DNA of 63,965 nt, the filler included, from Lenisia limosa (Eukaryota; Protista; Breviatea), in assembly GCA_001655205.1 (NCBI GenBank). It is 9 parts of 9 records of this genome, joined end to end, with 100 filler letters (N's around TTAATTAATTAA, not from the genome) between each part and the next. Parts side by side here need not be neighbours in the genome. Positions count along the whole stretch, not along the records: positions 7,578 to 26,568 come from LPNZ01009160.1; positions 26,669 to 29,285 come from LPNZ01001307.1; positions 29,386 to 37,469 come from LPNZ01005224.1; positions 37,570 to 45,826 come from LPNZ01009399.1; positions 45,927 to 50,518 come from LPNZ01005003.1; positions 50,619 to 56,853 come from LPNZ01009170.1; positions 56,954 to 62,723 come from LPNZ01006170.1; positions 62,824 to 63,965 come from LPNZ01009701.1; 1 more part is not named here. One strand, written 5' to 3'. Position numbers and translations under genes: made by a program. Below are positions 8,889 through 63,965 of this stretch, in pieces (position 1 is the stretch's first letter; every line of letters begins with the position of its first letter). Below the pieces are notes generated by a model, which was given only the letters and a program-made list of their open reading frames with translations, was not told where the DNA came from and searched no databases.

Positions 8889-11800
8889 ATGAGGGGAGGC
8901 ATGTGCGCAGTGTTGGGTGAATTTTATTCTAACGTTCTTGGGTTTTTTGTTTTGTGTTTAAAATATCCATTTCACCCCCCCCCCCCTNNNNNNNNNNNNN
9001 NNNNNNNNNNNNNNNNNNNNNNNNNNNNNNNNNNNNNNNNNNNNNNNNNNNNNNNNNNNNGCTGGAGTGATTGGATGCGGTTGCAGAAGCGACTGGCCTG
9101 ACCTTTATTTGTTTTGTTGTTATCAACACTCGTGTGTTGTCAGCCAAAAGAGTTGATTTTGGGCTTTTTTTTGAGATTTTTCACTTTACTCCCCTAGACA
9201 CCACTTCGGAGCTGCCTAGATGGATAGACGAGTTACTCCGGTTCGACCCTCGTCCGGAGACTCTTCCCATTCCCTTTCAAAACACACGTGAGCGTGGAAT
9301 AGAGCTTCACTTTCGGTTCCATAAAAACACTGGTAAAAGCCCGATAAATTATTGACAGATCCTCCATAAATTCCCAATAAATCCCCGATTAATTCCTGAG
9401 TATCGATTTGTCCGTCTTCATTATTTAGACAACCCTTTTGTTTCCATCCCCTATATTAGACGTTCACGTTAGGTTCCAAATACGGCTTCACTTCGGTTCG
9501 AAAAAAGCCTCAATTTCGATAAATCCTCGAAAATTATCGATATTTCACCGGTATTTTTCGAACTAAAGTGAAGCCCCAGCACTAAAAGACAGGTCAAATC
9601 TTGAGAGTTGAGAATTCAGTATTTTGGAACCGAAAGTTAAGTTCTAATAAATACAACCATTTAGCCTCAACCCAGCGTCAGCCGACAGGGGTATTCACTC
9701 AACTCGAGCGCGCACACACACTACCTGTATGCTGGGTCTGTTGAAAATCTACACTTAAGGTGGTCGTTGTTTTTTTTTGTTTCCTACATTTTCCAATTTT
9801 ACCTTTCCCCCTAGACAATCCCCCACCCCCAGGTTTGTTTTGTTGTTATCAACCCNNNNNNNNNNNNNNNNNNNNNNNNNNNNNNNNNNNNNNNNNNNNN
9901 NNNNNNNNNNNNNNNNNNNNNNNNNNNNNNNNNNNNNNNNNNNNNNNNNNNNNNNNNNNNNNNNNNNNNNNNNNNNNNNNNNNNNNNNNNNNNNNNNNNN
10001 NNNNNNNNNNNNNNNNNATTTTCGAAGATTTATCGAGATATTTAGTATTTTTTCGAACCGAAGTGAAGCCCTACTCATACCCCCCCCCAGCCACAGAAGA
10101 GACGTCAGTGACGTCATCGTTTCAGCGCAATGTTTTCAATGAGTTTCTTGAGGTTCATGTGGAGAACGAATTCCGGGACTTTCATATGGTACCTGGGGTG
10201 TACTTTGCGTACAGTTTATTTTGTTTTCTAATAATAAAAGTGAGAGGAAATTTTTGTATCTGACTCGGCTCATCAAGCTTCCTTCGACATTAACTATTCG
10301 ATATATTAGGTACATTTAGTTGCGATATTTTTTACATTAGTTGAGGATTTCCCCAGAAATTGCTCCATTTTTTGATCCAAAAAAAAACCTCTGAAATATT
10401 CCAATTCTGTCCATTTTTCCCCATAGACATAAGAATCTTAACAACCCTCAAATATTTTAATTCTGACTATTTTAGAAAAAGATCAAAGGTTTCATTTTCC
10501 CAATGACCACTGTAAGAGGAGAGAAGGAGTATTTCAATCAGATGTATAGAGAGTCTATCGTATCATATCAATATATATATATATACATATATATATGTAC
10601 TTTTTTTCGCTTTCAAAATCGAACTAGGGATTGTTACGATCCGAAAAAGTCTGGTAAAATTTCGAAGTTTATTGAGGTTTTATCGGTAGTTCGTCTTTGC
10701 GGAACTGTATGGAAGCCCTACTTACGCCAGTCCTTGTGTTTTCTGATCACTCAGATCATTCTGGTGTTCTCGTGGATCTTTTTCATCCACTTCTTGATCC
10801 GGCGCTTCAAAGGCGTGGAATCCCTTGTGTTTTCTTTATCGTGGGGGAGGGGGTCTATGTTGTGGGTTGGGCTTCACTTCGGTTCGAAAAAGACCGATAA
10901 AATATCAATAAGTTTCGAAGATTTTTCGAGAAATTCAGTCTTTTTACGAACCGAAGTAAAGCCCTAGGTGGGGCGTGGGGGGTATTGTTTCTATTGTTGG
11001 GGGTGGTATGACAACATTTAGAGAACTATATGATTTTGAACCCCCAACAATAACAATGTTTAGAGAAATAATATACATTAAAAATCTTGGAAAACAAATA
11101 AATACAAAAGGATACCATTAACAAGTTACCATGCCATCTCTCCAGGTTTGCAGTCTTTCCTATTTTTTCGCTGTTCCAGTACTTCTTCTTCCGTAAATGC
11201 ACAGTCGAAACAAGTTAGTTGGTGTCAACTGCATCATAGAAGTGGAGATTAGTTTATCACAGTATTTGATTTTATCAAGAAAATAAGTATTATAGGGTAA
11301 TAAATTGAACTTAGCCTTCTGCAAGAGAGTTTTTGTCATTAGGGAAGCACTGATATTGTAGGAGCGAAGTATTACCAAATCGTCCTAGTCAGCAACTCCA
11401 TTTGTCTTCTCCTTGCTTGTGAGATTGGGCTCTTTGAGAGGAATTTAAATAAATACATGAAATGAAATAAAATCTACATAAGCATAGAGATACTATGAAA
11501 CAAATTGCCATACTTCAGCGTTTTTTCGCTCCTCAGAGCCCCCCTCACCAAACATAATAGGTGCCCGGGACCCCCTGAATACTAAGGGGGGGTAATAGTG
11601 ATGGGTTTTTCAGTTGAAGATCCTTTTTTCATCCAAGTAACCTGCTTTTGTCTTTAAGGAATATTGAGGCGGCAGAGTCTTTACAATCTGCCGCCTCAAT
11701 ATTCCTAAAAGAGATTTGTGTCCCTTTGACAGTCACACCCATTCACCTCATTTACCCCAATAACAATTAACCCAACTATTTGCCTTTCAACTATGTTTAC

Positions 11801-14800
11801 TCAGTTTTCTGAATGCCTTCACAACAGTTGGATAGCATTCTCGTTTTGACACTACTACATGTAGAAATGAGAAAGAAAAACAAGGTAGTATCTGGCCGAA
11901 ACCGTCCACACCATCACGCTTATACGAGATATTGGATTATAGTATTAATTGAATTTGCCCATTCGATACTCCTTATTCATTCCAATACCACCATTTAACT
12001 CCCCCATTTATAATACCTCCATTTAACTACTGCTTCCGATACTCATTTTGACATTCCTTCTTCATTCCAAAACCCTTATTTGCCAATCCTTCATTCCTCA
12101 ATATGACTCTTTGACTCTCCTTATTCATTGCTCTATTTGAAACTCCTTCATTCCTCTATTTGACACTACTAGACACGATTCCGTTACTCGAGGAAGGCCA
12201 GCTTGACTCCGACAACACCAGTGTTGTATGGGGGAGGGAGGGGGCATTAATATTATTTTATTTATTTTTTGTCAAGAAACTATATTATATATAAAGATAA
12301 GAATACACAGGGCTTCTATAGTGATAAGTCCAATAGTATACACTCGTACGATAGTTGACCGACAATTCTTATTGCTACTCTGAGAAACCTAAACCTTTGT
12401 GTTATTTTCGTTCATCATTTGGATTTGAAAGTCGGTCATATGATCATATCACTAGTGGATATGTGTTATCAACACGACTTGGATTCTAATTTCCCAGATC
12501 TTCACATACCCGCTGATTGTCCTCATGAATCCCCTCGTCTTCCAGTGTCTCTTTAGGTAAATATGTGGTCATATTATTGTAATTATCAGATAAAAGATGT
12601 CACTAAAATTTTTATATGCACTCTACTTCTCTTAATCAAATGTACCTGGTTCAGTAAATCAGCTTTTTTTTATCATTATGTTCAAATTACGGCTTCACTT
12701 ACGATAAATCCTTGATATATCCTCGATAAATATGGATATTTTTACTGGTATTCCGTATGTTGTGAAGACTTCAAATCCTTTTCTAAATGCTATAATGAAG
12801 TTACAAACTTTTAACCGTTACAGCACTAACTCTGTGTGTTTCCCTTTGTCTTGTTAATACATATTGTATCATATATTTATTTTTAAAAAAACACAAACAA
12901 TTTAACTAACACCTACAGACCCACCGTACTGGTGACATGGGCACTGACTTTCTACCTCTGGGTGGTGTACTTATATGGAGGACGGACCGAGATGGTGTAC
13001 AATCAAGATGACAGTCGATGGGGCTTCCTTGTCCAGATGTCCGTCTTCAACGTCGTGTTTTCGTGAGTGTGGACTGGATATCTTTTCGTGGGGTGGGGGG
13101 TTGCATGTTTTTAACCCGTGTATACTTTACAATTCATTGTTATTTCATTGATTTCCAATTTCCTCTAGGATGCGGTGATGCAGAAGCGACTGGACTGGGA
13201 TNNNNNNNNNNNNNNNNNNNNNNNNNNNNNNNNNNNNNNNNNNNNNNNNNNNNNNNNNNNNNNNNNNNNNNNNNNNNNNNNNNNNNNNNNNNNNNNNNNN
13301 NNACAAATTCTAATTTAACTCCCGCCCCCCCTCCCCCACAGATTCTCATTCCTCCGTTTTGATCTTTCGATCCGAAATGAATTCCTCCTCCGTCGGAATC
13401 TGCAGATTGAGAACCGAAAGCTTGCGGCCCGCGTTGACGCTGCCACAGCCTTGAGGAAGAAGACTGAGGGGGGAGAGGTGGGAGGGGGTTGACTCTGTTG
13501 TATTGTTTTTTGTCTTTCTTTTTTTCTTTGAGAAGAGGGTAGTTGATCGTTACCCCCAGGGATGCCGTAATTTCACCCTCATAGGTTAAGCATTGATCCT
13601 CACACCATTTATATTTTTGATCTTGACTTTCCGTAGGAAGTTGACAAGGAAACCCGCGATTGGCTTCTCAGAAACTACGCGTCCAAAGAAGAGCGGGTGG
13701 GGGGGATGCCGGGTATTTTGAGTAGTCAAAGGGATAAAAGAGGTTAGCTAATGTTTTTTTGTTTTAATTTGTTTTATCACTTCACCCCTTAGGAAAAGGA
13801 GAGTCGCCCACGTAAGATGAGTGTTGTCAGCATGACCTCTTCAGTCGCTGCCAGAGTGGGGGTGGAGTGTGAGGTACATTGTGTGTATTTGTTTGTTTTT
13901 GTATGTGTGTGTGTATGTGTGTGTATGTGTCTCTGTGTGTGTGTGTCTGTGTGTGTGTGTATTCTGTGTATGTGTGTGGTATGTGTGAATGTGTTTCTGT
14001 GTGTATGTGTGTGGGTACATTATTACAGAGTTCACCTTTTTTAGGTGAGACCCACCCCGAAGCAGAACAAGTCTCCAGAGGTTGGCCCCTTTGTTTGTTC
14101 TTGTAGATTAGGGCTCCGTGCAATTAATTTTTTGGGGATATCAATTGATAAAATTTGAAATTATAGTGTCTGGAATAGGGTTCTCGTTCTTATATGTCCG
14201 ACTTCATATTTTGAAATTATTTTCAATTAATGCATGAAGCCCTAGGTAGTATATACTGGCTTCTGCTTGAACCAAGCAAGTGTAAAATGTGCTATTTTCT
14301 TTGATTTTACAGACACGAGCTATTCAAGGATATTTCCATTTCCTTTCCATCTTCACCATTTTCACCCTTTTCGCCACCTTCCCTTCAATTTGTTTATCAG
14401 TGTTCATGGACAATTCAGCACCACTTCCCTTCTCTCATTTCTAATGCCCATAAACTGCTGTCTTATTTCTCAGGCTCATAAGCTGATGATGCAAATGGGG
14501 CAATTCGTGTCCCCAACATTCAAATACTGCCAAGCCTCGGACTGCAATTTGACTGAACTTGTGGGTCACACAAATAACCAATCATTACCTCAAATAGTAA
14601 ATTACCACTCCCCCTCTTAAATAATCATGAAGTCTTCTTTTTTCACCTGCCCTCAATAATATTTTTGAAATGTCCTTTGTTTTCCTTCATCACTTGATTT
14701 GGGCTTGTTTCATAAATTTTCCAAAATTGACTCCTCCCCCTCCCAGGCTCTCCACCTCTTCCTGACATCCAACACCATTCTGAGCCTTGGTATCAGCGTC

Positions 14801-17800
14801 GTCAAACTCCGAACATTCCTTGAAAGGGTGGGCCGGGTGTTGTTACCTTGAAAGGGTGGGCCGGGTGTTTGTTATCTCTCCTAAAGGTGGTGTTTATATC
14901 GTCTCTTTTTTAAAAAATATTTTGGTTTTTTGTTCATAAAATACTACTTTTATCATTTTTTATTTTTTAACTACAGACGCTGCCACCCCCTTTAAGATGA
15001 GCCCTTTGTCTGGGGTGGAAGGGTGTTAATAGGCTTCAGTCAGCTTCTGATAATGGCTGAAATAATCGATATATTTCGATATTTTACCAATTTATTTTTT
15101 GGACCCGAGTGAATCCCGAGGTGCCAGGTAGTTAACCATTAATTTCCTTTTTAGTTGAGTGTCAAGTACAAGGCAAATCCCTATCACAACATCGAACATG
15201 CTATCGAAGTTATGTCCTGTATCTTCTACCTTGTTTCCTATGTAAGTGGTAATTTAGTATTTCTATGAAAAAGGGGATGATATGTTTCCGTAAGTGGTAG
15301 TGTAGGCGGTTATTGTCTGCAAAATTTGGCGTTGTTGTTCTGTTTTCTGTCTTGACAATTTAGCCAAACATTCGGCCTCACCTGACTACCCAAGAAGGTT
15401 GGAGAGGGGGAAAGGGGGGAGTGATTGGAGAGGGGGGGCTGAATTGGGCATATGTGGAGATGAAAAATAAAACATATTACATATAAATTTTCCAATGTTA
15501 CCCCCCCCCCTCCGCAGTGTTTACGGCGCTCTTGGCAGCAGTTTGCCATGACGTCGACCACGTCGGCTTCAATAACGCCTATCTGGTCACTACTCGGCAT
15601 AAAACGGGTAAGGGAGGGTTATTGATTTTAGATTTTTCTTACTTTTATTATTATTGTTTTTTTATAGTTTTCCTCACCCCCTTTAGCGATTGCCCACAAC
15701 GACTTGTCACCAATGGAGCGTCATCATTGCTCTACCTCAATCCAGCTGATGGAAGAAGCTGGCCTCCTGGAGTGCTTCGACATTGAAACTGCTAAGGACG
15801 TACGGGGGAAATGTGTTTAGGGGAAGAAAGAAAGGTTGTTAAATAATGGGAGGATGGTAGTTGATTTGGTGGGTTTTCTCCCTTACATTTTCCAATTTTA
15901 CCCTCCTTGCCAGGTTCGACAACTCTTCGTTCAGCTAATCCTTGCAACTGGTTGGTGTTTCTGGCGTATTAGGAAGATAATGGGTTTGTGTCAAATGATG
16001 TCCTTTAATACTATGAAATAGCTCAAATACTCCCGCCTCTACTTGGTAACCTTTATATCCCCTCGATCACCATCCCTCTCACTGTCCCCTTTCACACTGC
16101 AGATATGACGCAGCATTTTGGACTGATTAACGAACTTCGCAGTTCGACCGGTCTGGACTCTGGTTGGGGGGAGTAAAACCAAGGAAATTTCGATTAAAAA
16201 TATTGGCGTAAAGGTACAAATCACGAACCAAAAAATCTGAAACTCCNNNNNNNNNNNNNNNNNNNNNNNNNNNNNNNNNNNNNNNNNNNNNNNNNNNNNN
16301 NNNNNNNNNNNNNNNNNNNNNNNNNNNNNNNNNNNNNNNNNNNATTATGTTTTAGACAAGTTTGACCTGTCAACGCAGAAGCAAAAGGGCCTCCTTCTCA
16401 GCATCGCGCTTAAGGTAAATTCGTGCCCTCCAAATCATCATCATCATCACAACTGCTCCCTCCCCTCTTGTTTTTTAGCCCGGACTTTTTTTTAACAACA
16501 GTGTGATATTTTTTATATTCAAACAACCAATCTTCTGCTGGAGCCCCCCCCCCCCCNNNNNNNNNNNNNNNNNNNNNNNNNNNNNNNNNNNNNNNNNNNN
16601 NNNNNNNNNNNNNNNNNNNNNNNNNNNNNNNNNNNNNNNNNNNNNNNNNNNNNNNNNNNNNNNNNNNNNNNNNNNNNNNNNNNNNCAGACATCGGGCATG
16701 TTGCAAAAGACATAGATTCAACCATTGTATGGACTGCTGTGAGTGGGGGAAGTTAATTTTGGCTCAGTCTTTTATTTTTTCTCGAGTGATTAAATTCGTC
16801 AAACATGAATGTCGTGTTATTGTTCATTTTTGGAACAATATCACTTCATTTTTTGTGTTTAACATACAACATGTCGACTCTCATTCAGTGTAGAGAATCA
16901 ACTTGATTGGGTTTTTCTTCTTGTTCCAAACAAAAGAAACAATCATATGAAAGTTCTAACCTAACCATATGCAGAGAATCAACTCGGAGTTCTTCAATCA
17001 AGGTGCCAATGAGGTGAGCTATCCTGGGCAAGATATGCTTCCCTACAGTCCGAAAAAAGACTTAATTTTCCGAAAAATTCTCGATAAATATCGATATTTT
17101 GACGGTCTTTTTTGTACCGTAGGGAGCCCTAAATACAGGGACTGTTGGGGGGTATTTAATTCATATTCTTTATCGAAATTTCCTTCAGTACACCCCCATC
17201 CAGCTGTAAAATAACGTTTCCCCCCAGGATCGTGCCTTTACATCAATATCCCACCGGGATCAGTGCCTTTACNNNNNNNNNNNNNNNNNNNNNNNNNNNN
17301 NNNNNNNNNNNNNNNNNNNNNNNNNNNNNNNNNNNNNNNNNNNNNNNNNNNNNNNNNNNNNNNNNNNNNNNNNNNNNNNNNNNNNNNNNNNNNNNNNNNN
17401 NNNNNNNNNNNNNNNNNNNNNNNNNNNNNNNNNNNNNNNNNNNNNNNNNNNNNNNNNNNNNNNNNNTGTTTTTGTTTAATGAACTTTCCAATTTTACTTT
17501 CATAACCCAAAGAAATTTTTTTGAAAAAGTTTCCAATTTATCCCCCCCCCCTAGACCTACCTCGGATTGCCAATTAGCCCCTTCATGGACAGGTCAAAAA
17601 TGGACATACCTAAGAGCCAACTAGGGTTTATTGACTTTGTTGTCAAGGTGGCTGGGGTAAAGTAACTGTGAATTTTGGGAAGGAGCGGATTTGGGACTTT
17701 GGTTGGGGGTGTGGTTGGATAATCTCGGATAATGCGTGGAATTGGGTAAATTAATATTTATAATTTAATATCTCTTTTAAGCGTGATGGTGTGGACGGCT

Positions 17801-18738
17801 TGAGCCAGATACAACCTTGTTTTTTTTCTCATATCTCACATTTTATTTATCATTTCTATGAATTTATTTCTCATTTCTCTATATTCCATTCACTCTACAG
17901 CCTCTCTTTGATGTTTGGGTTGAATGCTCAAATGACGAGTACGTGAGAGACCAATTGATGGCCAACCGGCAGTTTTGGTTCCAGTGAGGGGGGGTATAAA
18001 AGGAAAATAGAAGGAAAATAGAAGGAAATTTTGATGATTAAAATGTAATATTTGAGTATTTATGAAACACATGGAGGAGAGGGTAGTGGATGCAGATTTG
18101 GTTCTTGTAGGGGAGGCGGGGAGTAAAACGAAGGAAATTTCGATGATGAATATTTCCATAAAGGTACTCATCACGACCCGAATTTTCTGAAACTTCAAGC
18201 AACAAGACAAAAAAACCAAGCAATGACAAGGCGAGCAGCCTACTATATGTATTGCACTTTATTTCACTATTTCAAACCGTCTCCATTTCACCTCCATCAG
18301 GAAGCAAACCGAGGGAGTCAAGACAATCAGTGGTATAGCCCCTCCAGGTCCCTTCAAGCCGCCTGCTTCGCCACACTTCGTTGAAGACACCCGTGCCGCC
18401 TCGCCCACGCCCATGTCGGAAATCAGCGTCGGAATCAACGTTTGGGGGTGTAATGAGGGATGTGGATCGTGGCCAGAAGGGATTTGATCATAAAAATAAG
18501 AAGAGAAAGAAGAAGAAGAAGAAGAATCTACTACTACTACTACTAATAATAATAATAGTAATAATTGGAATAATCATAAACAATATTAATTTTATGTAAT
18601 GATTGCCTTTTCCGTTATCCTTTCTACGTCCTCATTATCCCTGATGATTATCTCACCGAACAGAGCGCGTCTAATCTACCTTACGTATCTACTGCGTCTT
18701 TGGCCGACGTTACAGGAGTTTCCCCCTCGGTTGGCTGA
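8889..18738 (+). CDS. Class I 3',5'-cyclic nucleotide phosphodiesterase with an N-terminal multi-transmembrane region
   Basis: Phase-consistent exons give NPYHNIEHAIEV (15155-15241), LLAAVCHDVDHVGFNNAYL, SPMERHHCS, LILAT|DMTQHF, LSIALK|xADIGH, EFFNQG and LPISPFMDRSKMDIPKSQLGFIDFVVK, which are the canonical PDEase_I metal-binding and invariant Gln motifs. Upstream exons (10690-13067) are hydrophobic. Start codon is tentative. Confidence 0.9.
9061..9172 (+). repeat. Orientation-locked intronic repeat (family F) copy
   Basis: GCTGGAGTGATTGGATGCGGTTGCAGAAGCGACTGGCCTG...GTGTGTTGTCAGCCAAAAGAGTTGATTTTGGGCTTTTT, ending 25 nt before the acceptor at 9197 of the PDE gene. Confidence 0.85.
9481..9576. 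mobile_element. MITE family A copy
   Basis: GGCTTCACTTCGGTTCGAAAAAAG...TTTTTCGAACTAAAGTGAAGCCC inverted arms, starting 13 nt after the donor at 9468. Confidence 0.85.
10869..10966. mobile_element. MITE family A copy (near consensus)
   Basis: GGGCTTCACTTCGGTTCGAAAAAGAC...GTCTTTTTACGAACCGAAGTAAAGCCC-TA. Confidence 0.9.
11657..11706. other. Perfect 20-bp inverted repeat (hairpin) in a PDE intron
   Basis: AGGAATATTGAGGCGGCAGA, 10-nt loop, then TCTGCCGCCTCAATATTCCT, its exact reverse complement. Confidence 0.9.
11880..11940. repeat. Short repeat family H (GCGTGATGGTGTGGACGGCTTCGGCCAGATAC), about 12 copies
   Basis: Other copies or fragments near 17770-17825, 23655-23710, 25860-25900, 26118-26190, 29655-29700, 43950-43990, 46845-46905, 56530-56575, 59835-59895, 62025-62095 and 62485-62515. 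Both orientations occur. Confidence 0.8.
13865..14025. repeat. Imperfect (GT)n/(GTAT)n microsatellite
   Basis: Directly visible. It produces the spurious ORFs at 13817-14123. Confidence 0.95.
14109..14244. mobile_element. MITE-like family C (~135 bp; GGGCTCCGTGCAATTAATT arms), TA-flanked
   Basis: TA-GGGCTCCGTGCAATTAATT...AATTAATGCATGAAGCCC-TA. Diverged copies at about 19062-19183, 21128-21258, 22558-22690 and 58189-58305 share an AAATTAAAGTGTCT-like core. Confidence 0.7.
16165..16247. repeat. Short repeat family G (GGGGAGTAAAACGAAGGAAATTTCGAT...TATTGGCGTAAAGGTAC)
   Basis: Related copies at 18113-18195, 30127-30192, 46004-46045 and 60936-60970. Confidence 0.7.
17034..17131. mobile_element. 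MITE family B copy
   Basis: TA-TGCTTCCCTACAGTCCGAAAAAAGAC...GTCTTTTTTGTACCGTAGGGAGCCC-TA, starting 20 nt after the donor at 17014. Confidence 0.85.
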
Positions 18739-18933
18739 GTTTCACACGAAGCAGTGACTTTCATTCAATATAATCAACTGAATAAGTCCTTTATTCTTAA
18801 ATTAATCATTTTTGGTCTTAATCGAGAATGAGGTTTTTTTTTTGCTTATTCTAGTAATGATCATCAACAAATTGTGAACATAATCATCATCTGTCCATAA
18901 AGTTATGGACTGACACTCTCCATTATTCGTCAT

Positions 18934-19033
18934 GAGGGTTTTACTTCGGTCCGAAAAAAATATTAAATTTGTCGATAAATCTTCGGTATTATCGATATTT
19001 TACCGGGCTTTCTCCGACCGAATTGAAGCCCTG
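18934..19033. mobile_element. Diverged MITE family A copy (intergenic)
   Basis: GGGTTTTACTTCGGTCCGAAAAAAA...CCGACCGAATTGAAGCCC around the same TCGA-rich core. Confidence 0.7.
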
Positions 19034-19505
19034 ACTCTTAATTAGGAATTACTCCACATCCATCGTTGCAATGTTATTACTCAGTGACAATTTTGAAATT
19101 AAAGTGTCTGAAATTGAGTTTACATTACAATGATGTTCTCTTCAAATTTTGAAATTATTATTTCAATTACTTGCACGGAGCCAGCTATTGCTAACTAACC
19201 ACTTAGGTGTCTTCCTCGTATATTCTAGAGGAGTAACTTTTTTAGCGAAGGTTATTATTGTTATTGTTAATTATTATTGTTATTATATGGTGAGTGTGAT
19301 TTGTTGGTGTGGACTTAGTATGAATGGAATGCATAGGTTTGATCTATCTCAAGTTTGGTGTTTTCTCATGTATTCAGACAATTTATTATGTTTCAAGCTC
19401 ATGTTTATTCATCAGACTAAGATTTATGGGTATTCAGAACTAGGTACTCAGAGTACGGATTGCCTAACTGAGAAAGAACAAAAAGAGCTCCTGACCCAGG
19501 GTCCT

Positions 19506-22500
19506 TCATGGAAGGACTTGAACTGGAATCACGGTTGGCCGCGGAAATAGAGACGAAACATAGTCACCCATGGTCCTCTCCACGGCTTCTAACTACAATC
19601 GCGCTTCCTCCTTCCTCTTTTTTTGCATTTGTCACGTTGAAGTCTAAGTTTACAGACTTTTCGCATCAATTTTGTAACTGCTTCTTAAGTCAAAATAGAA
19701 AAGGTTTTTTTCGATATTCAATTCTAAATTATTCTTAGAGGATCAAGTGAATCTCAATATTGGACAAAAAAAAACATCATGACACGCTGAAATTGGCAGC
19801 AAAATANNNNNNNNNNNNNNNNNNNNNNNNNNNNNNNNNNNNNNNNNNNNNNNNNNNNNNNNNNNNNNNNNNNNNNNNNNNNNNNNNNNNACTGATAGTC
19901 CGGGAAATCCAGAACCGTGAAATCAATCTAAAGAATTAAACTCAAAAATGTCAAAAACACTCTCGATAAGGAATAATAATAAAACACAATTAACGTCTCA
20001 AAAACACAACATTAAGATAAAATAGTGTTTCATTCTCTTACCAACAATAATACGTTTGTTGTTGTCNNNNNNNNNNNNNNNNNNNNNNNNNNNNNNNNNN
20101 NNNNNNNNNNNNNNNNNNNNNNNNNNNNNNNNNNNNNNNNNNNNNNNNNNNNNNNNNNNNNNNNNNNNNNNNNNNNNNNNNNNNNNNNNNNNNNNNNNNN
20201 NNNNNNNNNNNNNNNNNNNNNNNNNNNNNNNNNNNNNNNNNNNNNNNNNNNNNNATAAATTTCTTCAAAATTCCATAGGATTCCCGTGTAAAATACGGGA
20301 ATTCCCAAGTTTTTAACAAGAATTCCAAGTCGACGCGCCATAGTGCACCACTTTTCTACCATATATAACTCACCTGAGTACTTCCGATTTGGCTGGAGCA
20401 TTCGACAACGGTGCCCTTAACAAATGGGAATGTCAACGAGCCGGCTGTGGGGGGGGGGGGGGNNNNNNNNNNNNNNNNNNNNNNNNNNNNNNNNNNNNNN
20501 NNNNNNNNNNNNNNNNNNNNNNNNNNNNNNNNNNNNNNNNNNNNNNNNNNNNNNNNNNNNNNNNNNNNNNNNNNNNNNNNNNNNNNNNNNNNNNNNNNNN
20601 NNNNNNNNNNNNNNNNNNNNNNNNNNNNNNNNNNNNATGAGGGTTGAGAACCCACCTCCGATAGCCTCCATGCTGTCACCGGCAGCGGTGATGTCAAGGA
20701 ACTCAACTGTGGTGGTACCTTTAGCGCCCTAAATGACGTGAGTTTTGTGTTGTGTAGCAAATCAAAATAGTCTGGCTTTGATAATACTAAACCACGTGAG
20801 TTTTCTGTGTAGCAAATCAAAATATTCTGGCTTGGGGCGGGTGTGAATTCAACCGCATGGTGGGGGTGTACTCAATGATGCTGTNNNNNNNNNNNNNNNN
20901 NNNNNNNNNNNNNNNNNNNNNNNNNNNNNNNNNNNNNNNNNNNNNNNNNNNNNCAACAGGCTTATCTGGCCTATCTAGTTTATTATTAGCTATGTAATTT
21001 CCATTTATCATGAGAAATAAAACAAGCGGCTATCTTACCCCACTCCCAACCCGAACTTCAAGTCGAGTCATCATTCGGCTGTTGCTGTAAAGTGAGAATG
21101 ATCACAGTCACAACTAGGGTAGAAATACGTGTCCGTGCAATTTAATTTTTGAAGAAATTCATTGACATAATTAGAAATGAAAGTGTCTAAAATGGAGATT
21201 AAATTAGTGTCCCTTTCAAATTGTGAAATTAATTTACCAACGAATTGCACAGAGTACTTCGTGCAATTCGTTGAGGAAGTAATTTCAAATGTTTCAAATG
21301 TTTCAAATTTTGAGGTGAGGCATATTGCAATCTGAACTGTGTTTCAGACTTTGATTTATAAAAAAAGTGAATTACACAGAGTCCAACATGTACTGTATAA
21401 TGATAATATACACATTATAGATAAACCATATAATACTACTAATACTACTAATACTACTAATACTACTAATACTACTACATGTACGGTATCTTTTTCATAT
21501 GATATAGTATATTACCTGTCATATGATATATGCTATTCTCAAAAATATAGATTTGTATTATGTATGGATTTACGCAGTGTTTACGAACTTACTTAGGAGC
21601 GGTGGCGCGAACGGATAGCAAGACAACCACATCCCTGAAATGTCAGAATGATTGATTACTGGGGGGTGATTCAAAGTCAGAATAATGATCATGAACCCAT
21701 ATCATCACCGCGTGACAAAATGACAGGTTACACGTGTGAAAGTATCTTTTTTGGACCGTAGGAAAGCCCAAGTTAATTTTACTCCCCATCTAGGGCTTCA
21801 TTTCGGTTCGAAAAAGACCGCTAAATAGTTTTCGAGGATTTATCGAAAAAATCAGTCTTTTTTCGAACCGATGTGAATCTCTACCCCCCACCTCAAAGCA
21901 GTGAACCTGTTCGTTGCAGAGTCGAAACTAAGGAAAGGCATTCCAATATTTGACCTAAAGACCATGAGGAGTGGCGTAATCTCTAATCCCTATTTACAGT
22001 GACCGCGATAAGTCCTGACACGGAGCTTTATCATTAGTCAATCGTGTCAGGATTTATCACGATTATTTTGGATGCTAGGGAGGCACGTATTTCGTGATAT
22101 GATTTCTGTTGACACGGGCTTCACTTTGATCCCGACAACAGCTGAATTACTGGATATATCATTGTAATATTTCGATCGTTTACCGAAATGTAAATGGAGT
22201 GTCAACATAGCAATATAGCATGTATGACTACTTAGACCTCGAATCGTGTCAGGACTTTTGGTGGTCAGTGGATATGTATACCAAGCCTACTCAGTATAAG
22301 ACGACACAATGTGACTTGATTCGTAGGTGAGTGAGTAGTGATGCGCTGCTACGTCTCCTAAATCGTCAGCTCTGGCACCGGGTACAAACAAAGATCATGT
22401 AAATCGAAACATTTCGAGAACTTATCAAGAAATAAATCGAAGTGAAGCCCAATTTTTCTTACTAAAACCCCACTTACTGGCTTCTGGGAGGGGAAGAACT

Positions 22501-26290: not shown

Positions 26291-26499
26291 TAAACTGGGG
26301 GAGGGGAGTAAGAATCAAAAATTTATGAAAAAAAAACACAAAATCACAAAAACCACTCTTTCTTTCTCAACACATACCCTCATATTGTATGTGCCCCCCC
26401 CCCAAACACACAAATTTTATTTTACATACTGACAGGGTGGAATTTTACCCATTCTGCGGTTACACTTGCCTGATATGGAAGGTTTTTAGGGTGGAATTT

Positions 26500-26568
26500 T
26501 ACAGGTTATTTTACCCAATTGTGTTGAGTTTTACCCAATTGTGTTGAGTTTTACCCAATTGTGTTGAG
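26500..26568. repeat. 20-bp minisatellite (GAGTTTTACCCAATTGTGTT)n running into a gap
   Basis: About three exact units visible before the N run. Confidence 0.9.
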
Positions 26569-26829
26569 NNNNNNNNNNNNNNNNNNNNNNNNNNNNNNNN
26601 NNNNNNNNNNNNTTAATTAATTAANNNNNNNNNNNNNNNNNNNNNNNNNNNNNNNNNNNNNNNNNNNNACAAAGCCCAGGCTAGTCGATTCTGCAGCTCC
26701 GCATCCCATCGTATTTTTCTTTTGCAAAATAAAAAAGTAAAAGGGTCTGGTTAATGTATTTTAGATGATATTTGAACTGATTCCCAATTTTTATGCATGT
26801 GGCAAAACGTTCGTTGGACTCAGCCTAAA

Positions 26830-48477: not shown

Positions 48478-51350
48478 ATGGGCAACAGCCTCCTGGCCTG
48501 CATGGCTCTCTTCCTCATCTATTTATCGGTTTCAAGCGTTTTTGCTGAAATGTAGGCGGATCCGCTCCTTTTTTCCTGTCTTCTTGTTTGCTGTTCCGGT
48601 TGTTTGTTGCTCAGCCCTTTTGAATAGTCGCCATATTGCCATTTTTACATGTGCTTATCGGTTTTGTGGGCTTTGATAATCCTTATTATCACATTTTTAA
48701 GCATAAAAGGTTCTTAAATAGTTTCGGTACCTATATCAGTGAAGACTTTGACTGTCTTAATTGCAAACCCCCCTTTTTTCAGTTGCAAACCCCCCACCAT
48801 TTTTTTTTACCATTTTTTTACCATTTTTTTACCATTTTTTTTTATTTCATAGGACTACAATAATACACATTGTACAGAATGTATATTATTGTAGTACTCT
48901 CCCTTCGTTAATTGATACTTGTTGCAAAATAATCATAGGAGTCTGACTCCTTGCAATTAATTGGACCAATAATAGTCCTGCTATTTCATGTTTATCTTGC
49001 TACTGGACAAGTCCTACTATTTCATGTTTCTTGTTACTGAAAACACACTCACCACTTCAGCTTGGAAACGCCCAATGGTATTCGGCTGAAAGTTGACCAG
49101 ACCTTTACCGACGATGCCGCTCCCATTTCAAGGGTATGGGTGATAACTTTATGGGGGGGGGGGGGGGGNNNNNNNNNNNNNNNNNNNNNNNNNNNNNNNN
49201 NNNNNNNNNNNNNNNNNNNNNNNNNNNNNNNNNNNNNTGTTTGATATGTTTCCAATATTTTTGCGGTTATGTCCGTCTTGTCAGGTATAACTATCTAGGC
49301 CACTTTCGCTGAACAGCAAAACGCTTTGAAAGGTTTGGGGGAAGTTCGGATAAATGTGAGCATATTGTGCTCTCTTATTCAACTCTCTTCACTCCCGCTC
49401 GTCTGACGAGAATTACCATAATCACCGTAGGCTATCCAAATAATACTACAATCCAATATCTCTTNNNNNNNNNNNNNNNNNNNNNNNNNNNNNNNNNNNN
49501 NNNNNNNNNNNNNNNNNNNNNNNNNNNNNNNNNNNNNNNNNNNNNNNNNNNNNNNNNNNNNNNNNNNNNNNNNNNNNNNNNNNNNNNNNNNNNNNNNNNN
49601 NNNNNNNNNNNNNNNNNNNNNNNNGTCGCGTTTGTCCGACATTTCAGCTCTTCAATGCCGGGTGTTTCCTCTGATCACTGGTGGTCTGTCAGCAACATTT
49701 GAGGTACACCCCAGGATGCTAGATATAATGCCAATATTTTTATTGATATCGATATATATTGTCCAAATACTACATGTACATGTATATCTATGTAGAAAGG
49801 AAAAATATAAAGTTCTATTATTTTATTAATGGGATATCAAATAGTATTTTCTCAATGTGATGATGTGAGTGAATGGTTTGGCATCGTTCTCCCCCCAGGA
49901 TTTACCTCCCTCCATATAACCCTCGTAATGGGATGCGGTGATGGGATGCGGTGATGGGATGCGGTGATGCAGAAGCGATTGGCCTGGGCTTTGNNNNNNN
50001 NNNNNNNNNNNNNNNNNNNNNNNNNNNNNNNNNNNNNNNNNNNNNNNNNNNNNNNNNNNNNNNNNNNNNNNNNNNNNNNNNNNNNNNNNNNNNNNNNNNN
50101 NNNNNNNNNNNNNNNNNNNNNNNNNNNNNNNNNNNNNNNNNNNNNNNNNNNNNNNNNNNNNNNNAGGATTATGAAAACCCCACAGTTGACACAGCTGTTG
50201 TCAAGGCCTCTTTAAAAGTATCAGGGATTTCTCAGTCGCACAGTATAATAACCCATACACATACACATACTACAATGTATGATATTGTCAATCTCTTCAC
50301 CCACCCCTGGGCTTCACTTCGGTTCGAAAAAAGACCGAATTTCTTGATAAATCCTCGAAAACTATCGATATTGTACCGTATTTTTCGAACCAAAGTATTT
50401 GTGTTGCCTGTTATTCCAACAAGTTATTTTAGGTTATTATATCGATATATATTGTAATACAAATTTTCCTTTTTTATTATTTTGGGATTTTTTTTCTTCT
50501 GTTGTTTTATAATTTTTCNNNNNNNNNNNNNNNNNNNNNNNNNNNNNNNNNNNNNNNNNNNNTTAATTAATTAANNNNNNNNNNNNNNNNNNNNNNNNNN
50601 NNNNNNNNNNNNNNNNNNGAACAGCTTCCCTCAATCCCTCGTCTTCAACGAACTCGGAATCGCTCATCAGTGGAAGTTCGCTAAATCGTGAGCAACTCGC
50701 CAAGGCCTCTTTCAATAAATTTTCTATAAATTCTGAGGGGAATCCCAGAATAGAATTGAGGTGCACCCGATACTCTCTCTACTCAATCATGAAACCTGTG
50801 GTTATACAGACACCATCTACTACCCTGCTTCCCTTTCTCCTCTCTTCATTTTAGCTTTTCAGCCCCTTGCCCGATAAAATAATCTCCATGAGATTGTCAC
50901 GGTGTTCGTGCTGACAAGAACATGATCAAGTCCCCCCCCCCCCCNNNNNNNNNNNNNNNNNNNNNNNNNNNNNNNNNNNNNNNNNNNNNNNNNNNNNNNN
51001 NNNNNNNNNNNNNNNNNNNNNNNNNNNNNNNNNNNNNNNTTCGCCACTTCTCGAATGGTTATCCGCTCCGTCTCATCGAAGTTGTCTTCGGGGATCTTCA
51101 CCACCAAAGGCTATGGAGGGGTGGAATGAGAGATTACAAAACAATGAAGTCTAAACGGACGATTTTAGATATAATGAAAAGTAGAGATGTAATCCACCAA
51201 TATAGAGCATTATACACCAAAACAAGCTCCTCACCTGTGTTGGATGGTTTTGTGCTTCGACAGGGTGCTCGGAGACGGAAATGAAGATCTCTTTCGCGGA
51301 GGGAGTGGAGGTGATATTGAAGAGGCATTGTGATAGGGACGAAAAGTGGG
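48478..51350 (+). CDS. Predicted secreted protein, paralog of the gene at 57987, possibly with degenerate RCC1-like repeats
   Basis: Signal-peptide-like MGNSLLACMALFLIYLSVSSVFA, then EI|LETPNGIRLKVDQTFTDDAAPISR|, LQCRVFPLITGGLSATFE|DYENPTVDTAVVKASLK and FPQSLVFNELGIAHQWKFAKS. Frame of the 3' exons is ambiguous and several gaps interrupt it. Confidence 0.55.
50309..50396. mobile_element. MITE family A copy
   Basis: GGGCTTCACTTCGGTTCGAAAAAAGAC...TTTTTCGAACCAAAGT. Confidence 0.8.
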
Positions 51351-57986: not shown

Positions 57987-60900
57987 ATGGGTTTATCGTG
58001 GAAGTTCATTCCGTTTCTGATACTGCTTACGACGGCGCTCCTGTGCTCCGCCGCTATCCTGTGGGAGTGAGGTGCCAATAAATTGGTGCGAATAGTATCA
58101 TTTTTATGGCCTTCACAAACATTAGTGCTTCTGATAAATGCTTAGCATTAATATCATTATGAAGATGCTTAATATTAACCTCATGAATATGCTCCGTGCA
58201 ATTAATTTCTGAAATTACTGCCACAATTTGAAATTAAAGTGTCTATAGTTGAGTTTATATCACAATATGTCACACTTAAATTTTGCATTACCCGCATTGA
58301 AGATGTTTATTATTCTTATGAGTAACAAAGCTCTCCTTAAACCTCTCTTGCGAAGTTATGGTAGTTTAATGTTTCACAGCACTCCGAGTGGCCTTGAAAT
58401 CGACGCTCAGCCAGCAGTATCGGCCAGTCAGCCGGTTACTAAGGTGGGGGGTTAAGTCATCCAGTTACACTACGGCGCATTGACTTATAATTCCCATGCA
58501 TTATTTGATAATCCCATAAATTTCTTCAAAATTCCATAAAATTCCATGGGATTTGTAAAATATGGGAATTCCAACGTTTTCACAAGATTCTCAAGTCGAT
58601 GCGCCATAGTGCAGCATTCAACTCTCGTGTGTTGTCAGCCAACAGAGTTGATTTTGGTTTTTTTTGTTTCATCGAATTTCCAATTTCACNNNNNNNNNNN
58701 NNNNNNNNNNNNNNNNNNNNNNNNNNNNNNNNNNNNNNNNNNNNNNNNNNNNNNNNNNNNNNNNNNNNNNNNNNNNNNNNNNNNNNNNNTTTACTAATAA
58801 AATCAAATCAAATAAAATCAAATCAAATAAAATACAAAATCAAATACAATAAAATTAACTAAAATGTAATACAACAAAATAAAATCAAAATGACCATTTT
58901 AGAGTGTCTTTGAGGGTGAGTGGCGATACTGTCAAGGCCTGTAAGATAAAGGGGGCCATTTTGGTTCAAATCATGAATCTTATCGCGGTCACATATCGAT
59001 ATGTACAGGGACCAATGTGATTTCCCAAGGAAAATCGGTCAATACTTATCCTAGTCACATATCGATATCATATGTAAAATATTTGACCTATTCTCCTTGG
59101 AATATCGTTGAGCAAATCGGTCAAGACTTATCCTGTTTGTTGTTTGGGAAGTAAGGATTTCCATGAACTGAAGGAGTAATAAAGGGACGGGATTCTCATC
59201 ACTTAGATGAGTTTGATTTTCTCCCTTCAAAGTTTTGACTAACTTTCTAGCGCAAATCACTGAGTTGCAAAATGCGGTTGATGGTAGGTGGTCGTCCAAT
59301 CTGCAAAAATCTCACTTTTAATCACTTTTTTATCACGGTGTCTGCAGGGCTGGTGTCTTAAGTAATGCTTCCTTTCGGTTCGAAAAAAGACTGGATTTAT
59401 CGATAGATCATCGAAAACTATCTCTATTTTGTCGGTCTTTTTCGAAGTGAAAACCTAGTCATAAGGTCTCGGGGTCAGGCCAAAACTTATCTTACAATAT
59501 ATGTATCACTACATTACATATCATATCGATATGGTATTTTATATCATAGTAGTATGATATGGTTTCACTTCGGTTCGAAAAAGAACACTAAAACTAAAAT
59601 GTCGATAGTTTTCGAGGATTTATCGAGAAATTCAGTCTTTTTTCGAACAGAAGGGAAGCCCTACACATCCCCGTCTCCCTTATTTCCCAGACCTGCAGTG
59701 TTCTGTACCCCCTTCCCCTAATATCCCAGATTTGAAGTGCACAATGCTGCCGTTCCCCACAGCTCCTGTTGAAATGCGTCTTCTAGAGCACTCCGTTTAT
59801 GCTGGAGGGGCTTGGGCGTCTCTAGAGGTGGGAATATCTCTTTTAAACGTGATGGTGTGGATGGCTTCGGCTAGATACAACCTTGTTTTTTATTTTTCAT
59901 TGCCATTTTTACAATGTGATGGAATATTGTATTTTCGTGTGACAATAAGGGATATGTAAGGGATTCTATTTTCTATTATTGTCAACCCATTTCATTGCAA
60001 CAGTTGGATTGCCAGTACTCTAAGGGGTACAATACCGAGACGCTTACGGTCAATGCCACTTGTACATCTGCTTTGGGGTGGCAAGGCGTCCCATCATGCA
60101 CGCCGATCGAAGGAAGTGGGAAGGTGCCTATACATAGCTAGGGTTTCCCAACGGTCCGAAAAAGACCGTTTAAATGTCGATATTTATCGAGGATTCATCG
60201 AGAAATTTGGTCTTTTTTTGAGACCGTAGGGAACCCCTACCCCTATACATAGCATATTATTAAGGCTTTACTACAATCCAGAATACGGCAGAATTTCTGG
60301 ATAAATCATCGATATATTTCGACACTTTACCGACCTTTTCGGTACCGAAGTGATGCCCTCATATACATTGACCAGGATGTCTTGACCGATTTGCTATGAT
60401 TTCTGAAGAAAAATAGGTCAAGACTTATCTCTGTCACTGTACATATTATACTATAATATAATTTTAATAACAACATCAGTAACAATAGGGTGCTTATTAG
60501 GGCTTCACTTTGGTTTGAAAAGTACCGGTAAAATATCGATAGTTTTCGAGGATTTATCGAGAAATGAACCGAAGTGAAAAAAGCCCTTGTGCTTATAGTA
60601 TACGATTAAATGAAATGATGGGCATTTTGGTAAGAATTTTAACAAAAAAATATTTCATGTGATAATTATTCTAACAACTTCTTTCCTCTTCGCCCCCCTT
60701 TCCAAAACAATCCCATTTCCATCACTATTCAGAATTGCTTTTCTGCGGTAACAATGAAAAGTCAAATTTCGGTCCCGGCGGCGACTATATAGCCCAATAT
60801 GGCTCGCAATCGTTTGGAGACTTCTCGAAGATTCTATCAATCGCATCCACCACAGATGTATCAGCTATTATTCTTGGTATGTTGGAATTAGGGCTTCCCT

Positions 60901-63840
60901 TCGGTCTGAAAAAGACCTTTGAAACCACTATTCTTCATCGAAATTTCCTTCGTTTTACTCCTCCCGCAGGTGACGGAGATATCCAAGTCATGGGCACTAA
61001 TACGTACGGGCAGCTGGGTATCAATACGGCCAACGTCACCTTCCATAAGGAAGTTTTTACGTCTCTTCGCTCTGTGTTGGGGGGTATGCATAATGTATGT
61101 ATATATCATATGTTTATGATACTATATGATATAATATGATTTGCAGATGATATTGTATATGATATACAGTGTTTATTGAAAAGAAGTGAAGCCATATACG
61201 TATATTAAATTCATATATGCGGGGACATTTGTGTCTTTCAACTTTGCTTATTTCTCGATAAATCCTAGATAAATATCGAAATTATTAAGTTGTTTTCGGA
61301 CTGTCAGGGAAGCCCAAGCTAATTTGACCGATTCAGGGTGTCGCCAAGCATCGTCTTTATCGACATTCAAGCTGGTTTTCATTTTGTTGCCTTGACTGGT
61401 ATGGGGTTTTTGCAGTTAAGTCTCTATTGAAACTAGGGTAATAAAGATAACATATCTATTGCAACTAGGATCGTAAAGATTAGTTTCTATTGAAACTAAG
61501 TTATCATTTGCGTCACCCTCACACCGGCTTCACCACTATCATCTTCTTCTTTACTACCATCATTATCATCATTACTATCATTGTCATCATCATCATCATC
61601 ATTATCATCATCATCATCATCATCATCATCATTATCATTATCATCATCATTATCATCGTCAAAAACAACAACACCATCACCATCACCACTTTAGACACCA
61701 ATGAGGTTTATGCTTGGGGTGGAAACAGCTATCATCAGACTTTCGAAACTACCCAAACCATAGTGCTTCGTCCAACTAAGGTACGACTTGGTTCAAAGTT
61801 AGGGTTTTACTTCGGTTCGAAAAAAGACTGGATTTCTCGATAAATCTTCGAAAACTACCGATACTATACTGGACATCTGCTTTCCCCCCCCCCCCCTTNN
61901 NNNNNNNNNNNNNNNNNNNNNNNNNNNNNNNNNNNNNNNNNNNNNNNNNNNNNNNNNNNNNNNNNNNNNNNNNNNNNNNNNNNNNNGTAAGGCAAATGAT
62001 TGAATTAAGATTATACTATAATCTAATATCTCTTATAAGCGTGATGGCGTGGACGGTTTCGGCCAGATACTACTTTATTGTTTATTTCTCATTGCTATAT
62101 TAGTATACGATATTATGATACATATATAACTGTCTCGCATGATAACTTTTCCCCTTTTTCAATTATTTACATATGATATAATATTATTTTACGATATTAT
62201 AATACATATCATGTATAACTGTCTCACAGGTTGACTTTTCGAGTGTTGGTGGCTGCACTGCTGACCAGCTGATTGTGCACACTCAAGCTACTGCTATCCG
62301 TTGCTCAGGTGGGGGGTGATGATGTTGACTGTGCTGATGTTGTTGTTGTTGATGGAGATGATACTGATGGTGGTGATGTTTTCGTTGATGTTGATGTTGT
62401 TGTTAGTGGTGATGGTGATGATGATGGTAACAGTGATGATAATTGTAATGTTGTTGTTAATGGTAGTGGTGGTGGTGGTGATGATGGTGTGGATGGCTTC
62501 GGCGAGATACAACCTTGCAGTTAATCCGCCCTCCCATGACCTTCACAACTACTCTTGGAAAAACACGAAATAGTTGTTATTATTCAATGCGATTTGTGTC
62601 ACTTTCACATCCCTCTGCCCGTAGTGTATGTAGTGACCCTCCCCCAGTATCAATTGATCATCCCATGCCCTAATTGACCCATTCCCTACAGCGGAGTCGA
62701 AGTTTGTCGGAGGCGGCCGCGGCNNNNNNNNNNNNNNNNNNNNNNNNNNNNNNNNNNNNNNNNNNNNTTAATTAATTAANNNNNNNNNNNNNNNNNNNNN
62801 NNNNNNNNNNNNNNNNNNNNNNNCATTGCCATATATATCGTATATACATGTATATTGTACCGTGATTTAATTTAAAAGTACGGGTTTTACTATTTCAGGT
62901 GAAGTTCGACCTTTTGAACGTCGAAAGGTGTGTGGAAAGGGCTTGCGTCCCAACTGGCTTTTTTTGTGTAATAAATTTAATTTTACTCACCCCCCCCCCT
63001 CCCCTATTAGATGCGTGCCATGCAGGGTTGAGGATAAGGAAGTTGACGGCAATACAGTTCAGTACCTCGAGCCCATTGTTGCTGCTCGTAAGGGGGTTAT
63101 ATATGGTTGAAATTGGTATTCTGTGGGTTGAAAAGAGGGAGAAGGAAAAAAATAGAACTGGGAGAAAAAAAAGAATTAGGAGGGGGAAAAAAAAAATCCG
63201 TATTTTTTTGGGACATTCGAAAAATTTGATCATGATCCACTTTCAAATGTTTTCCTTAATTTTTGTCGGGGATGTAGCTCAAGTGGTAGAGCGCTCGCTT
63301 AGCATGCGAGAGGCACTGGNNNNNNNNNNNNNNNNNNNNNNNNNNNNNNNNNNNNNNNNNNNNNNNNNNNNNNNNNNNNNNNNNNNNNNNNNNNNNNNNN
63401 NNNNNNNNNNNNNNNNNNNNNNNNNNNNNNNNNNNNNNNNNNNNNNNNNNNNNNNATGTAGGTATAATATTTTTCTTTCTGTAACTCTTGCAGGCAACGT
63501 TGCTGATGCCAAAACCCTGCCAAACTCTATCCAGGTTGGAGTGTAATATCTAGAGCTTCCATTTCGGTTCCAGAAGACAAATAAAGTTTCAATATTCGAG
63601 GATTTATTGAGGATTTTTCGAGGATTCAGTCTTTTTTGGAACCGAAAGTGAAGCTCTAGCATTGTCTTCTTCTTTATGAACTTAAAAACAATATATGATA
63701 TTAACAGATTAAAAAGATCTTGGGGAAACATTTATTTGGGGGTTTGAACATCGTTATTAAGTTTTATTAACCTTTTTTGTAGATCTTTATGAGGGAACGT
63801 GTTGTTCACCAGTTCTTCGGCGTGCCAGATTTTGACGTGA
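57987..63840 (+). CDS. Predicted secreted protein with RCC1-like repeats (continues beyond the window)
   Basis: Signal-peptide-like MGLSWKFIPFLILLTTALLCSA, then ILW|DTPSGLEIDAQPAVSASQPVTK|, and RCC1-type GDGDIQVMGTNTYGQLG, IDIQAGFHFVALT|DTNEVYAWGGNSYHQ. Confidence 0.68.
59364..59663. mobile_element. Two adjacent MITE A/B copies (59364-59458 and 59560-59663)
   Basis: TTCGGTTCGAAAAA left arms, shared TCGA core, right arms ending AAAACC-TA and GGGAAGCCC-TA. Confidence 0.75.
60139..60586. mobile_element. MITE pile-up: B copy 60139-60239, degenerate A 60261-60359, D/E arm 60370-60441, A copy 60498-60586
   Basis: Four consecutive elements recognisable by their arms within one intron. Confidence 0.75.
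61555..61690. repeat. (ATC)n trinucleotide microsatellite
   Basis: Directly visible, just upstream of the acceptor near 61696. Confidence 0.95.
62315..62485. repeat. (GAT/GTT/GGT) low-complexity repeat
   Basis: Directly visible, intronic. Confidence 0.9.
63268..63340 (+). tRNA. tRNA-Ala(AGC), 3' third hidden by a gap
   Basis: GGGGATGTAGCTCAAGTGGTAGAGCGCTCGCTTAGCATGCGAGAGGCACTGG gives the acceptor 5' strand, D-arm/A-box and anticodon arm CTCGC-TTAGCAT-GCGAG. Sequence is visible only to 63319, so the end coordinate is extrapolated. Confidence 0.85.
63551..63658. mobile_element. MITE family A variant, TA-flanked, both arms GAGCTTC
   Basis: TA-GAGCTTCCATTTCGGTTCCA...TGGAACCGAAAGTGAAGCTC-TA. 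Confidence 0.85.
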
Positions 63841-63965
63841 GGCGGGGGAGGTAATAAATATTGAACATTTTGTGGTTTACATTTTCCGTTCTTACTTCCC
63901 TTTTGTTGCATTATTTTCCACGTTGGAGGGATGGGATGCGATGCTGTAGAAGCTACTAGCCTGGG

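Follow-up and report, generated by a model that had tools for sequence, protein, structure and literature searches.

The stretch analysed here (the window), 63,965 nucleotides from the Lenisia limosa assembly GCA_001655205.1, is an intron-rich eukaryotic sequence with many assembly gaps. It is put together from nine records, whose joins (7478-7577 and seven others) consist of a 12-base stop-codon linker between two runs of 44 N, and order and strand across the joins are uncertain. Its introns carry a real and unusual repeat, hereafter the element, which lies at intron 3' ends in the sense orientation only. Seven window genes host it. A cyclic nucleotide phosphodiesterase (PDE) gene was placed on the plus strand by Pfam (PF00233) and by one RNA contig spliced on that strand, a WD40 gene on the minus strand by phmmer and Pfam (the protein relatives of the WD40 exon are all distant), and an RCC1-like gene on the plus strand by weak Pfam matches (E 0.011-0.017). 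The strands of the other four were called solely from open spliced frames with GT-AG ends. Protein searches with the exons of the ferredoxin and PDE genes did not yield transcript-derived versions of these window genes.

The unit is 151 nt long and runs from a donor-like GTACGC through a purine-rich and a GT-rich part, a weak hairpin, GGGC with a T-run, a conserved pyrimidine tail and a C-run to an acceptor AG; the version of about 115 nt described in the original prediction is the body without this tail. Judged by its sequence, the element is shaped like a complete intron, with putative donor and acceptor signals at its own ends. Among the contigs of a DNA run, 135 extend past the body (behind 9172) and share a T-rich and C-run consensus (agreement 0.52), several of them linking the body to ordinary acceptor tracts that match those at 14705 and 15483. 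Four full-length copies begin with GTAYGC, in keeping with the donor-like start first proposed, and identity among copies ranges from 74 to 100%, with deletions and truncations. The proposed acceptor at 9197 stands, while those at 29918, 46004 and 47274 are here corrected to 29926, 45997 and 47272.

All 18 copies listed earlier were recovered by nhmmer, together with one at 7598; the reversed-window control gave two matches only (E 3.8 and 9.2). A profile that includes the tail added copies at 47446 and 29198 (the latter being a second one within the 29180 locus) and short 3' fragments at 14694 and 15859, with none in the reversed control. This brings the window total to 23 copies in 17 introns of 7 genes, five more copies than were first listed, and replaces the initial estimate of about 14 introns and 5 genes. 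Every one of the 23 is sense to its host gene, as had been claimed of the smaller set. The copy at 7598, previously set aside as a possible counterexample, lies downstream of three in-frame minus-strand exons from an ATG at 8106, and most likely is sense as well, its host gene being predicted on the minus strand. No body copy was found by profile search in the apparently gene-free stretches of the window.

In a scan of prokaryote genomes the element turned up again, in contigs of eukaryotic origin within a single bacterial genome bin (G001), of which C39, C43, C67 and C69 are eukaryotic contaminants with spliceosomal introns. Scans of metagenomes (two patterns) and viruses (one pattern) gave no matches. 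The eukaryotic contigs in G001 supply eight further clear copies. Seven of them, in six introns, are sense according to open plus-strand frames in the loci L010 and L011, the latter holding a gene that we take to be a galactokinase, for which Pfam gave no match; the eighth, in L012, has a host strand that could not be assigned. Taken together, all 30 strand-assigned copies, in 23 introns, are sense. Summed depth in the DNA run reached 521,793 at 9128, compared with 20-43 for unique contigs, which suggests a genome copy number of about 10^4, a rough figure since summed depth is not a true copy number. Depth was threefold lower at 9101, closer to the 5' end, as fits truncation, although local divergence and a gap edge confound this comparison.

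The orientation of other repeats in the same genes provides an internal control, and the earlier statement that these repeats occur both ways round holds. A miniature inverted-repeat transposable element (MITE) of about 100 nt, with long terminal inverted repeats (TIRs) and often flanked by TA, occurs in both orientations at 31 window places, with a sense to antisense ratio of 12:18 in these genes. Among the other families the ratios were 9:3 (D15), 2:2 (family H), 5:1 (D20) and 3:1 (one more), or 19:7 when pooled. Fisher tests on the 23 window copies gave p = 1e-6 against the MITE and p = 0.01 against the pooled families. Family H (16168-16244, 18118-18194, 30134-30206, 60912-60961, 17170-17203 and 45997-46045) has a similar ending of pyrimidine tract and C-run; its sense copies lie at acceptors, which they supply, and its antisense copies at donor G-runs. 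A targeting route through C-runs that is common to family H and the element is possible. Many introns (e.g. at 15608, 17991, 23982, 46189 and 54899) begin with GT and a G-run and end with a C-run and AG, so that their two ends could pair, and assembly gaps often adjoin these G-runs and C-runs.

The main pattern (Table 1) has three parts: 3' ends are fixed at the acceptors of host introns, 5' ends are truncated to varying extents, and copies are stacked head to tail. For the position test twelve host introns were modelled and three with tail gaps dropped; in each of the nine gap-free introns a distance of 0-25 nt lies between the AG and the end of the last copy (joint chance about 1e-6 under random placement), a test that is partly circular because the consensus had been extended to the AG. 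The 5' starts of 31 copies are scattered, with 4 at consensus position 1, 23 at positions 4-102 and 4 cut by gaps or a transposon. The 3' ends are nearly fixed, all 22 uncut ones reaching positions 115-151 and 20 of them reaching 132 or more. Head-to-tail stacks occur at 24358/24275, 29285/29198, 47446/47391 and 46818-46414 and also in L010, and the stacked copies often sit just behind an older acceptor-like tract. In six of seven stacked pairs the exon-proximal copy is nearer the consensus, a weak age gradient (sign p about 0.06) and a biased one, downstream copies having contributed more to the consensus. At about 1400-3755 of L010 a transposon of ~2.3 kb with inverted ends has apparently been inserted into a copy of the element, splitting it.

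Table 1. Copies, fragments and tail-only matches of the element in the window (consensus positions refer to the 151-nt unit).
Position	Strand	Description
7580-7684	-	5'-truncated copy, consensus about 28-130; tail cut by scaffold gap; gene from ATG 8106
9061-9197	+	Almost full-length copy up to acceptor 9197; its first bases fall in gap 8988-9060
9776-9814	+	Tail-only match with acceptor-like TAG end
9833-9855	+	Copy from consensus 53, directly behind C-run and AG; remainder in gap
13169-13341	+	Copy from consensus 18 behind older acceptor-like TAG; gap; tail to in-frame acceptor 13341
14694-14746	+	3' fragment, consensus 99-149; forms PDE acceptor
15475-15517	+	Tail-only match; forms PDE acceptor
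15859-15913	+	3' fragment, consensus 97-145; forms PDE acceptor
17471-17554	+	Two stacked tail-only matches leading to PDE acceptor
18045-18071	-	Sole antisense match: tail-only, 5 mismatches in 27, between antisense family-H copy and donor G-run; no diagnostic body
24068-24275	-	Begins full-length with GTACGC, adjoining the older tail; after a gap, C-run and AG at 24068
24276-24358	-	Upstream, more diverged member of two-copy stack, with own tail
25184-25323	-	Complete copy from GTACGC to AG, the last 140 nt of a 292-nt intron
26295-26334	-	Tail-only match at acceptor
26669-26710	-	Copy from consensus 13; cut by scaffold gap
29114-29198	-	Downstream stack copy; TCAG common to old acceptor and element; leads to acceptor 29114
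29199-29285	-	Upstream stack copy; ends in own acceptor-like TCAG
29926-30059	-	Complete copy from GTACGC to AG; frame of intron 30263-29926 open using the 29926 AG
30060-30090	-	Older acceptor-like tract with CAG end immediately before GTACGC
45997-46109	-	Copy with its tail running into a family-H end at acceptor 45997
46274-46818	-	Four-copy stack (starts 46818, 46693, 46556, 46414) at 3' end of 904-nt intron
47272-47488	-	Tail-only tract 47447-47488, then two copies that start at 47446 and 47391, up to acceptor 47272
49925-50166	+	Copy in which 13 nt are triplicated internally; an older C-run and AG lie 26 nt upstream; after a gap, in-frame acceptor 50166
58617-58689	+	Copy from consensus 69 through tail; cut by gap
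63921-63965	+	Copy from consensus 4 behind pyrimidine tract; cut by window end

The sequence upstream of the copies resembles real acceptors. In 27 visible 5' flanks the fractions of C (0.25) and pyrimidine (0.63) are like those of acceptors, against 0.18 and 0.56 in intron interiors, and the tail motif is present in 7 of the 27, whereas its frequency is 1% at interior positions and 2 in 22 at acceptors free of the element. In 7 of 27 cases a YAG ends no more than 2 nt from the junction (5.4% expected); four of these share the AG of the element itself, leaving a strict count of 3/27 (p about 0.012 under an assumed 1.8% null). At 30059 a complete copy directly follows an acceptor-like CAG, AG being joined to GTACGC with no exon between, and the frame is open with the AG at 29926; at 13169 a truncated copy directly follows a TAG, with an open frame using acceptor 13341. 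In several copies 20-50 nt of unrelated pyrimidine sequence separates the C-run from the AG, which would be expected if the AG often belongs to the host.

The four full-length copies have four different flanks, and none of the four, all with a visible 5' flank, starts directly after an exon. The earlier remark that no copy starts at a proven exon boundary holds, and in this sample the element does not appear as a maker of whole introns between exons. Of the spread by splicing or reverse splicing that had been proposed, the link to splicing is retained, whereas the idea of a strict introner is not supported. A gap (8988-9060, about 47 real bases) conceals where the 9061 copy starts. Positions 9057-9197 may form a free-standing intron after a hidden 41-nt exon. 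With the donor at 8917 this would agree with both the 47-nt gap and the frame, but with the donor at 8910 no such exon is needed to keep the frame.

The predicted hairpin is present in the consensus, where its 39-nt fold has a z of -1.96, but five of six whole copies fold no better than shuffles. It is 85% paired across copies, with 2 of 15 pairs changing on both sides and 27 of 500 shuffles reaching its covariation score, so that covariation is weak. At about 5095-5112 of L010 a predicted exon end resembles 15 nt of a hairpin arm, by chance or as an exonised fragment. Rfam gave no match in the whole window at the gathering score; selection by E-value between 24000 and 30300 gave eight weak matches, none meaningful, of which only one touches a copy (E 3.9). 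An Sm-like word at consensus position 101 prompted consideration of an origin from a spliced-leader or small nuclear RNA, which found no support. RNA contigs were compared over 7578-23500, where they cover no element-bearing junction and absence of coverage is uninformative. Fold, covariation and RNA depth thus lend no support to the structured or abundant intronic RNA once suggested.

As first reported, the ends carry no sign of terminal repeats: the best inverted match in the consensus is 6 nt, lying 5 nt off the 5' end. Target-site duplications (TSDs) were likewise not apparent in 15 copies, whose cognate flanks are no more alike than non-cognate ones (permutation p 0.14), a test that leaves room for TSDs of 2-4 nt and for loss in old copies. 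The best lone cases are AGGATT around the 49925 copy, which occurs at the older acceptor-like site (49897-49902) and at the in-frame acceptor (50165-50170), and a 16-nt match in L010; they do not amount to an overall signal of long TSDs. Helitrons are marked by a 5' TC, a 3' CTRR after a close hairpin and insertion between A and T. The element starts with GT, its hairpin ends about 45 nt before its end, and the base after its AG is mostly not T.

These observations are tentatively explained, at a probability that we put near 0.45, by a non-autonomous retroelement whose RNA would be turned into DNA at acceptor sites, reverse transcription being primed at the C-run of the host; anatomy and placement were observed, while an RNA intermediate, an enzyme and actual use in splicing are inferred. 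Excision of a full copy from the pre-mRNA would release an RNA whose GU start is fixed. At the C-run just before the host AG, and aided by pairing with the tail of that RNA, a reverse transcriptase acting in trans would then be primed; copying from 3' to 5' would often stop early, and end joining would connect the product to the upstream DNA. The new copy would come to lie between the old tract and the exon, where it would be tolerated because it supplies a working pyrimidine tract; it is likely that it would become the working acceptor, and its tail would be the target for the next copy. A 5' boundary that is sharp at the donor while the flanks are unrelated suggests that the template had a set end, and an intron-like RNA released by excision is the simplest candidate; the contrast between fixed 3' ends and ragged 5' ends suggests that copying begins at the acceptor side.

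Several results weigh against this explanation. No reverse transcriptase was recognized among the 15 open frames examined with Pfam, no RNA polymerase III (Pol III) A or B boxes were found on either consensus strand and there is no A tail, and a TSD signal is absent. In poly(A) RNA contigs the RNA-to-DNA depth ratio of the element is within the range of other repeats, although this is a weak test. Acceptor use by the element is deduced from reading frames, the test of position has some circularity, the evidence for an age gradient is weak and the L012 copy has no assignable strand. Family H occurs at C-runs on both strands, and one tail-only match, out of 19 strand-assigned tail matches, is antisense, so targeting to C-runs alone is insufficient for the sense lock, which needs a link to splicing or selection.

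A route guided by the spliceosome would provide such a link. Here the 3' end of the excised element, still held by the spliceosome, would be joined to a 3' splice site, in pre-mRNA or in R-loop DNA, through reverse splicing's first step, and subsequent copying and end joining would give full or 5'-truncated inserts. This is unlikely on balance. It would explain the sense lock directly, and it agrees with the exact join at 30059, with the YAG excess at junctions and with the match between the element ends and host splice signals, GTATGC being the commonest donor (3 of 33 modelled introns). Several copies, however, end in a C-run and then other sequence rather than in their own AG, four of the seven YAG junctions reuse the AG of the element, and no copy is seen to break up an exon. 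Copying should moreover be blocked by a branch close to the 3' end unless debranching occurs. Precedents are offered by passages describing the R-loop model (PMC4540971) and the joins of linear group II intron retrohoming (PMC3280974). A broader form, in which a spliceosome-delivered mobile intron repeatedly overwrites existing acceptors rather than making introns, with its fossils making up thousands of acceptors and introns lengthening at the 3' side, seems similarly unlikely.

Templated repair involving DNA only is rather less probable. After a break at a G-run or C-run, the DNA would pair with a C-run in a different intron, an upstream stretch of variable length would be copied and the ends rejoined, and the family would snowball as its tail favours further annealing. 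The missing TSDs, the self-stacking and the short words (TCAG, AG) shared at C-run junctions are in line with this, and a local duplication is likely for the copies at 47446 and 47391, with their similar tails. Yet four full-length copies stop at the same GT within four unrelated flanks, where a DNA template would often have brought donor flanks along, and repair should work at antisense G-runs as well. Still more doubtful is a non-autonomous element of an ordinary DNA or rolling-circle type with a preference for C-runs, whose antisense and mid-intron copies selection would purge for their cryptic splice sites. Rolling-circle elements have one fixed and one variable end and form tandem arrays without a TSD, all of which would fit, and an acceptor-bearing sense copy would be harmless only at an intron end. 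The element nevertheless lacks TIRs, a TC start and a T after its end, is absent as a body copy from the apparently gene-free stretches, and shares its introns with family H, which survives antisense at donors. According to passages on mammals, selection does shape transposable element (TE) orientation near exons, but it depletes TEs near acceptors, the opposite pattern (PMC3088655). Least probable of all is that selection maintains and propagates a functional cassette, either an enhancer of splicing or an intronic RNA that is processed. Such a role would suit the strict bias in strand and position, the U-rich tracts and the Sm-like word, but copies decay freely, covariation is weak, the lone Rfam overlap falls short of the gathering score, and no copying mechanism is supplied.

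Whichever route applies, the element lives, apparently in about 10^4 copies, where TEs are normally depleted, at least in the passages on mammals cited above (PMC3088655), and it brings its own acceptor. This amounts to a safe-harbour strategy and to a possible route by which a selfish repeat shapes the 3' splice signals of a genome. RNA-based intron transposition is an open question, and thousands of polar, truncated splice-site junctions could separate reverse splicing from ordinary retroposition. Were the spliceosome-delivered reading true, the genome would hold a genome-scale record of reverse splicing, legible in joins of AG to GT and in 5'-truncated stacks.

Other features were noted in passing. 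An intron of the RCC1-like gene holds at 63268-63319 the 5' part, cut by a gap, of what is presumably a tRNA-Ala-like gene; ARAGORN reported no tRNA. The element-bearing locus L012 has tiny introns alongside long, repeat-filled ones. It contains a DDE_1 transposase remnant (PF03184) at 231-1109 on the minus strand, with a similar stretch in L011, and a DnaJ gene at 4060-5500 whose introns are only about 20-30 nt. One DnaJ exon is 100% identical to a transcript-derived protein, the other listed matches being at 65% or less.

Short interspersed elements (SINEs) and 5'-truncated non-LTR (long terminal repeat) retrocopies combine a fixed 3' end, 5' truncation, a simple-sequence tail, high copy number and short shared words at the 5' join. 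The element shares all of these traits. It differs in that Pol III boxes are missing, a C-run takes the place of the A tail, TSDs of 7-20 nt gave no signal, and placement is strictly sense and targeted at acceptors. Linear group II introns retrohoming in eukaryotes join precisely at the 3' side to the downstream exon, with error-prone end joining at the 5' side, in the passages available (PMC3280974); the likeness is in junction pattern only, the element having neither the ribozyme size and structure nor the protein. Intron circles, RNA products of the intron-lariat spliceosome in yeast and human cells, are described in parts of one report as having joins between the 3' end and the 5' splice site with full or trimmed tails (10.1101/2024.03.26.586863), which the joins at 30059 and 24275 resemble. 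Tandem copies made by one rolling copy of such a circle were considered and rejected, neighbouring copies being too different, and serial insertion fits better.

The introner elements of Micromonas (IE-A) are, in the passages drawn on here, short, non-coding, intron-shaped and sense only in transcribed regions, with remnants in existing introns, nested or merged copies, and reverse splicing as the proposed route (PMC3879977; PMC4540971). The element is likewise short, intron-shaped and sense-only in transcribed genes. Unlike IE-A, which forms whole new introns at new exon positions, it piles up, 5'-truncated, at the 3' ends of existing introns, a difference on which the supplementary figures S16-S17 (nested and merged copies) may bear. 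Among titles and abstract openings no family that replaces acceptors and stacks was found, although those Micromonas figures and introner datasets may bear on this, and a term search of a review of transposon-derived introns returned no passage on truncation or existing introns (PMC11282704). Fungal introner-like elements and introners lacking TIRs or TSDs are also gene-biased, shorter than 200 nt and suspected of an RNA route; as the cited passages define introners by end-to-end similarity of introns, a family that gives only intron 3' ends would escape the definition (PMC9860276; PMC12130899). Though no copy in this sample was seen to make up a whole intron, the element appears to work most like the sense-only introners that have neither TIR nor TSD.

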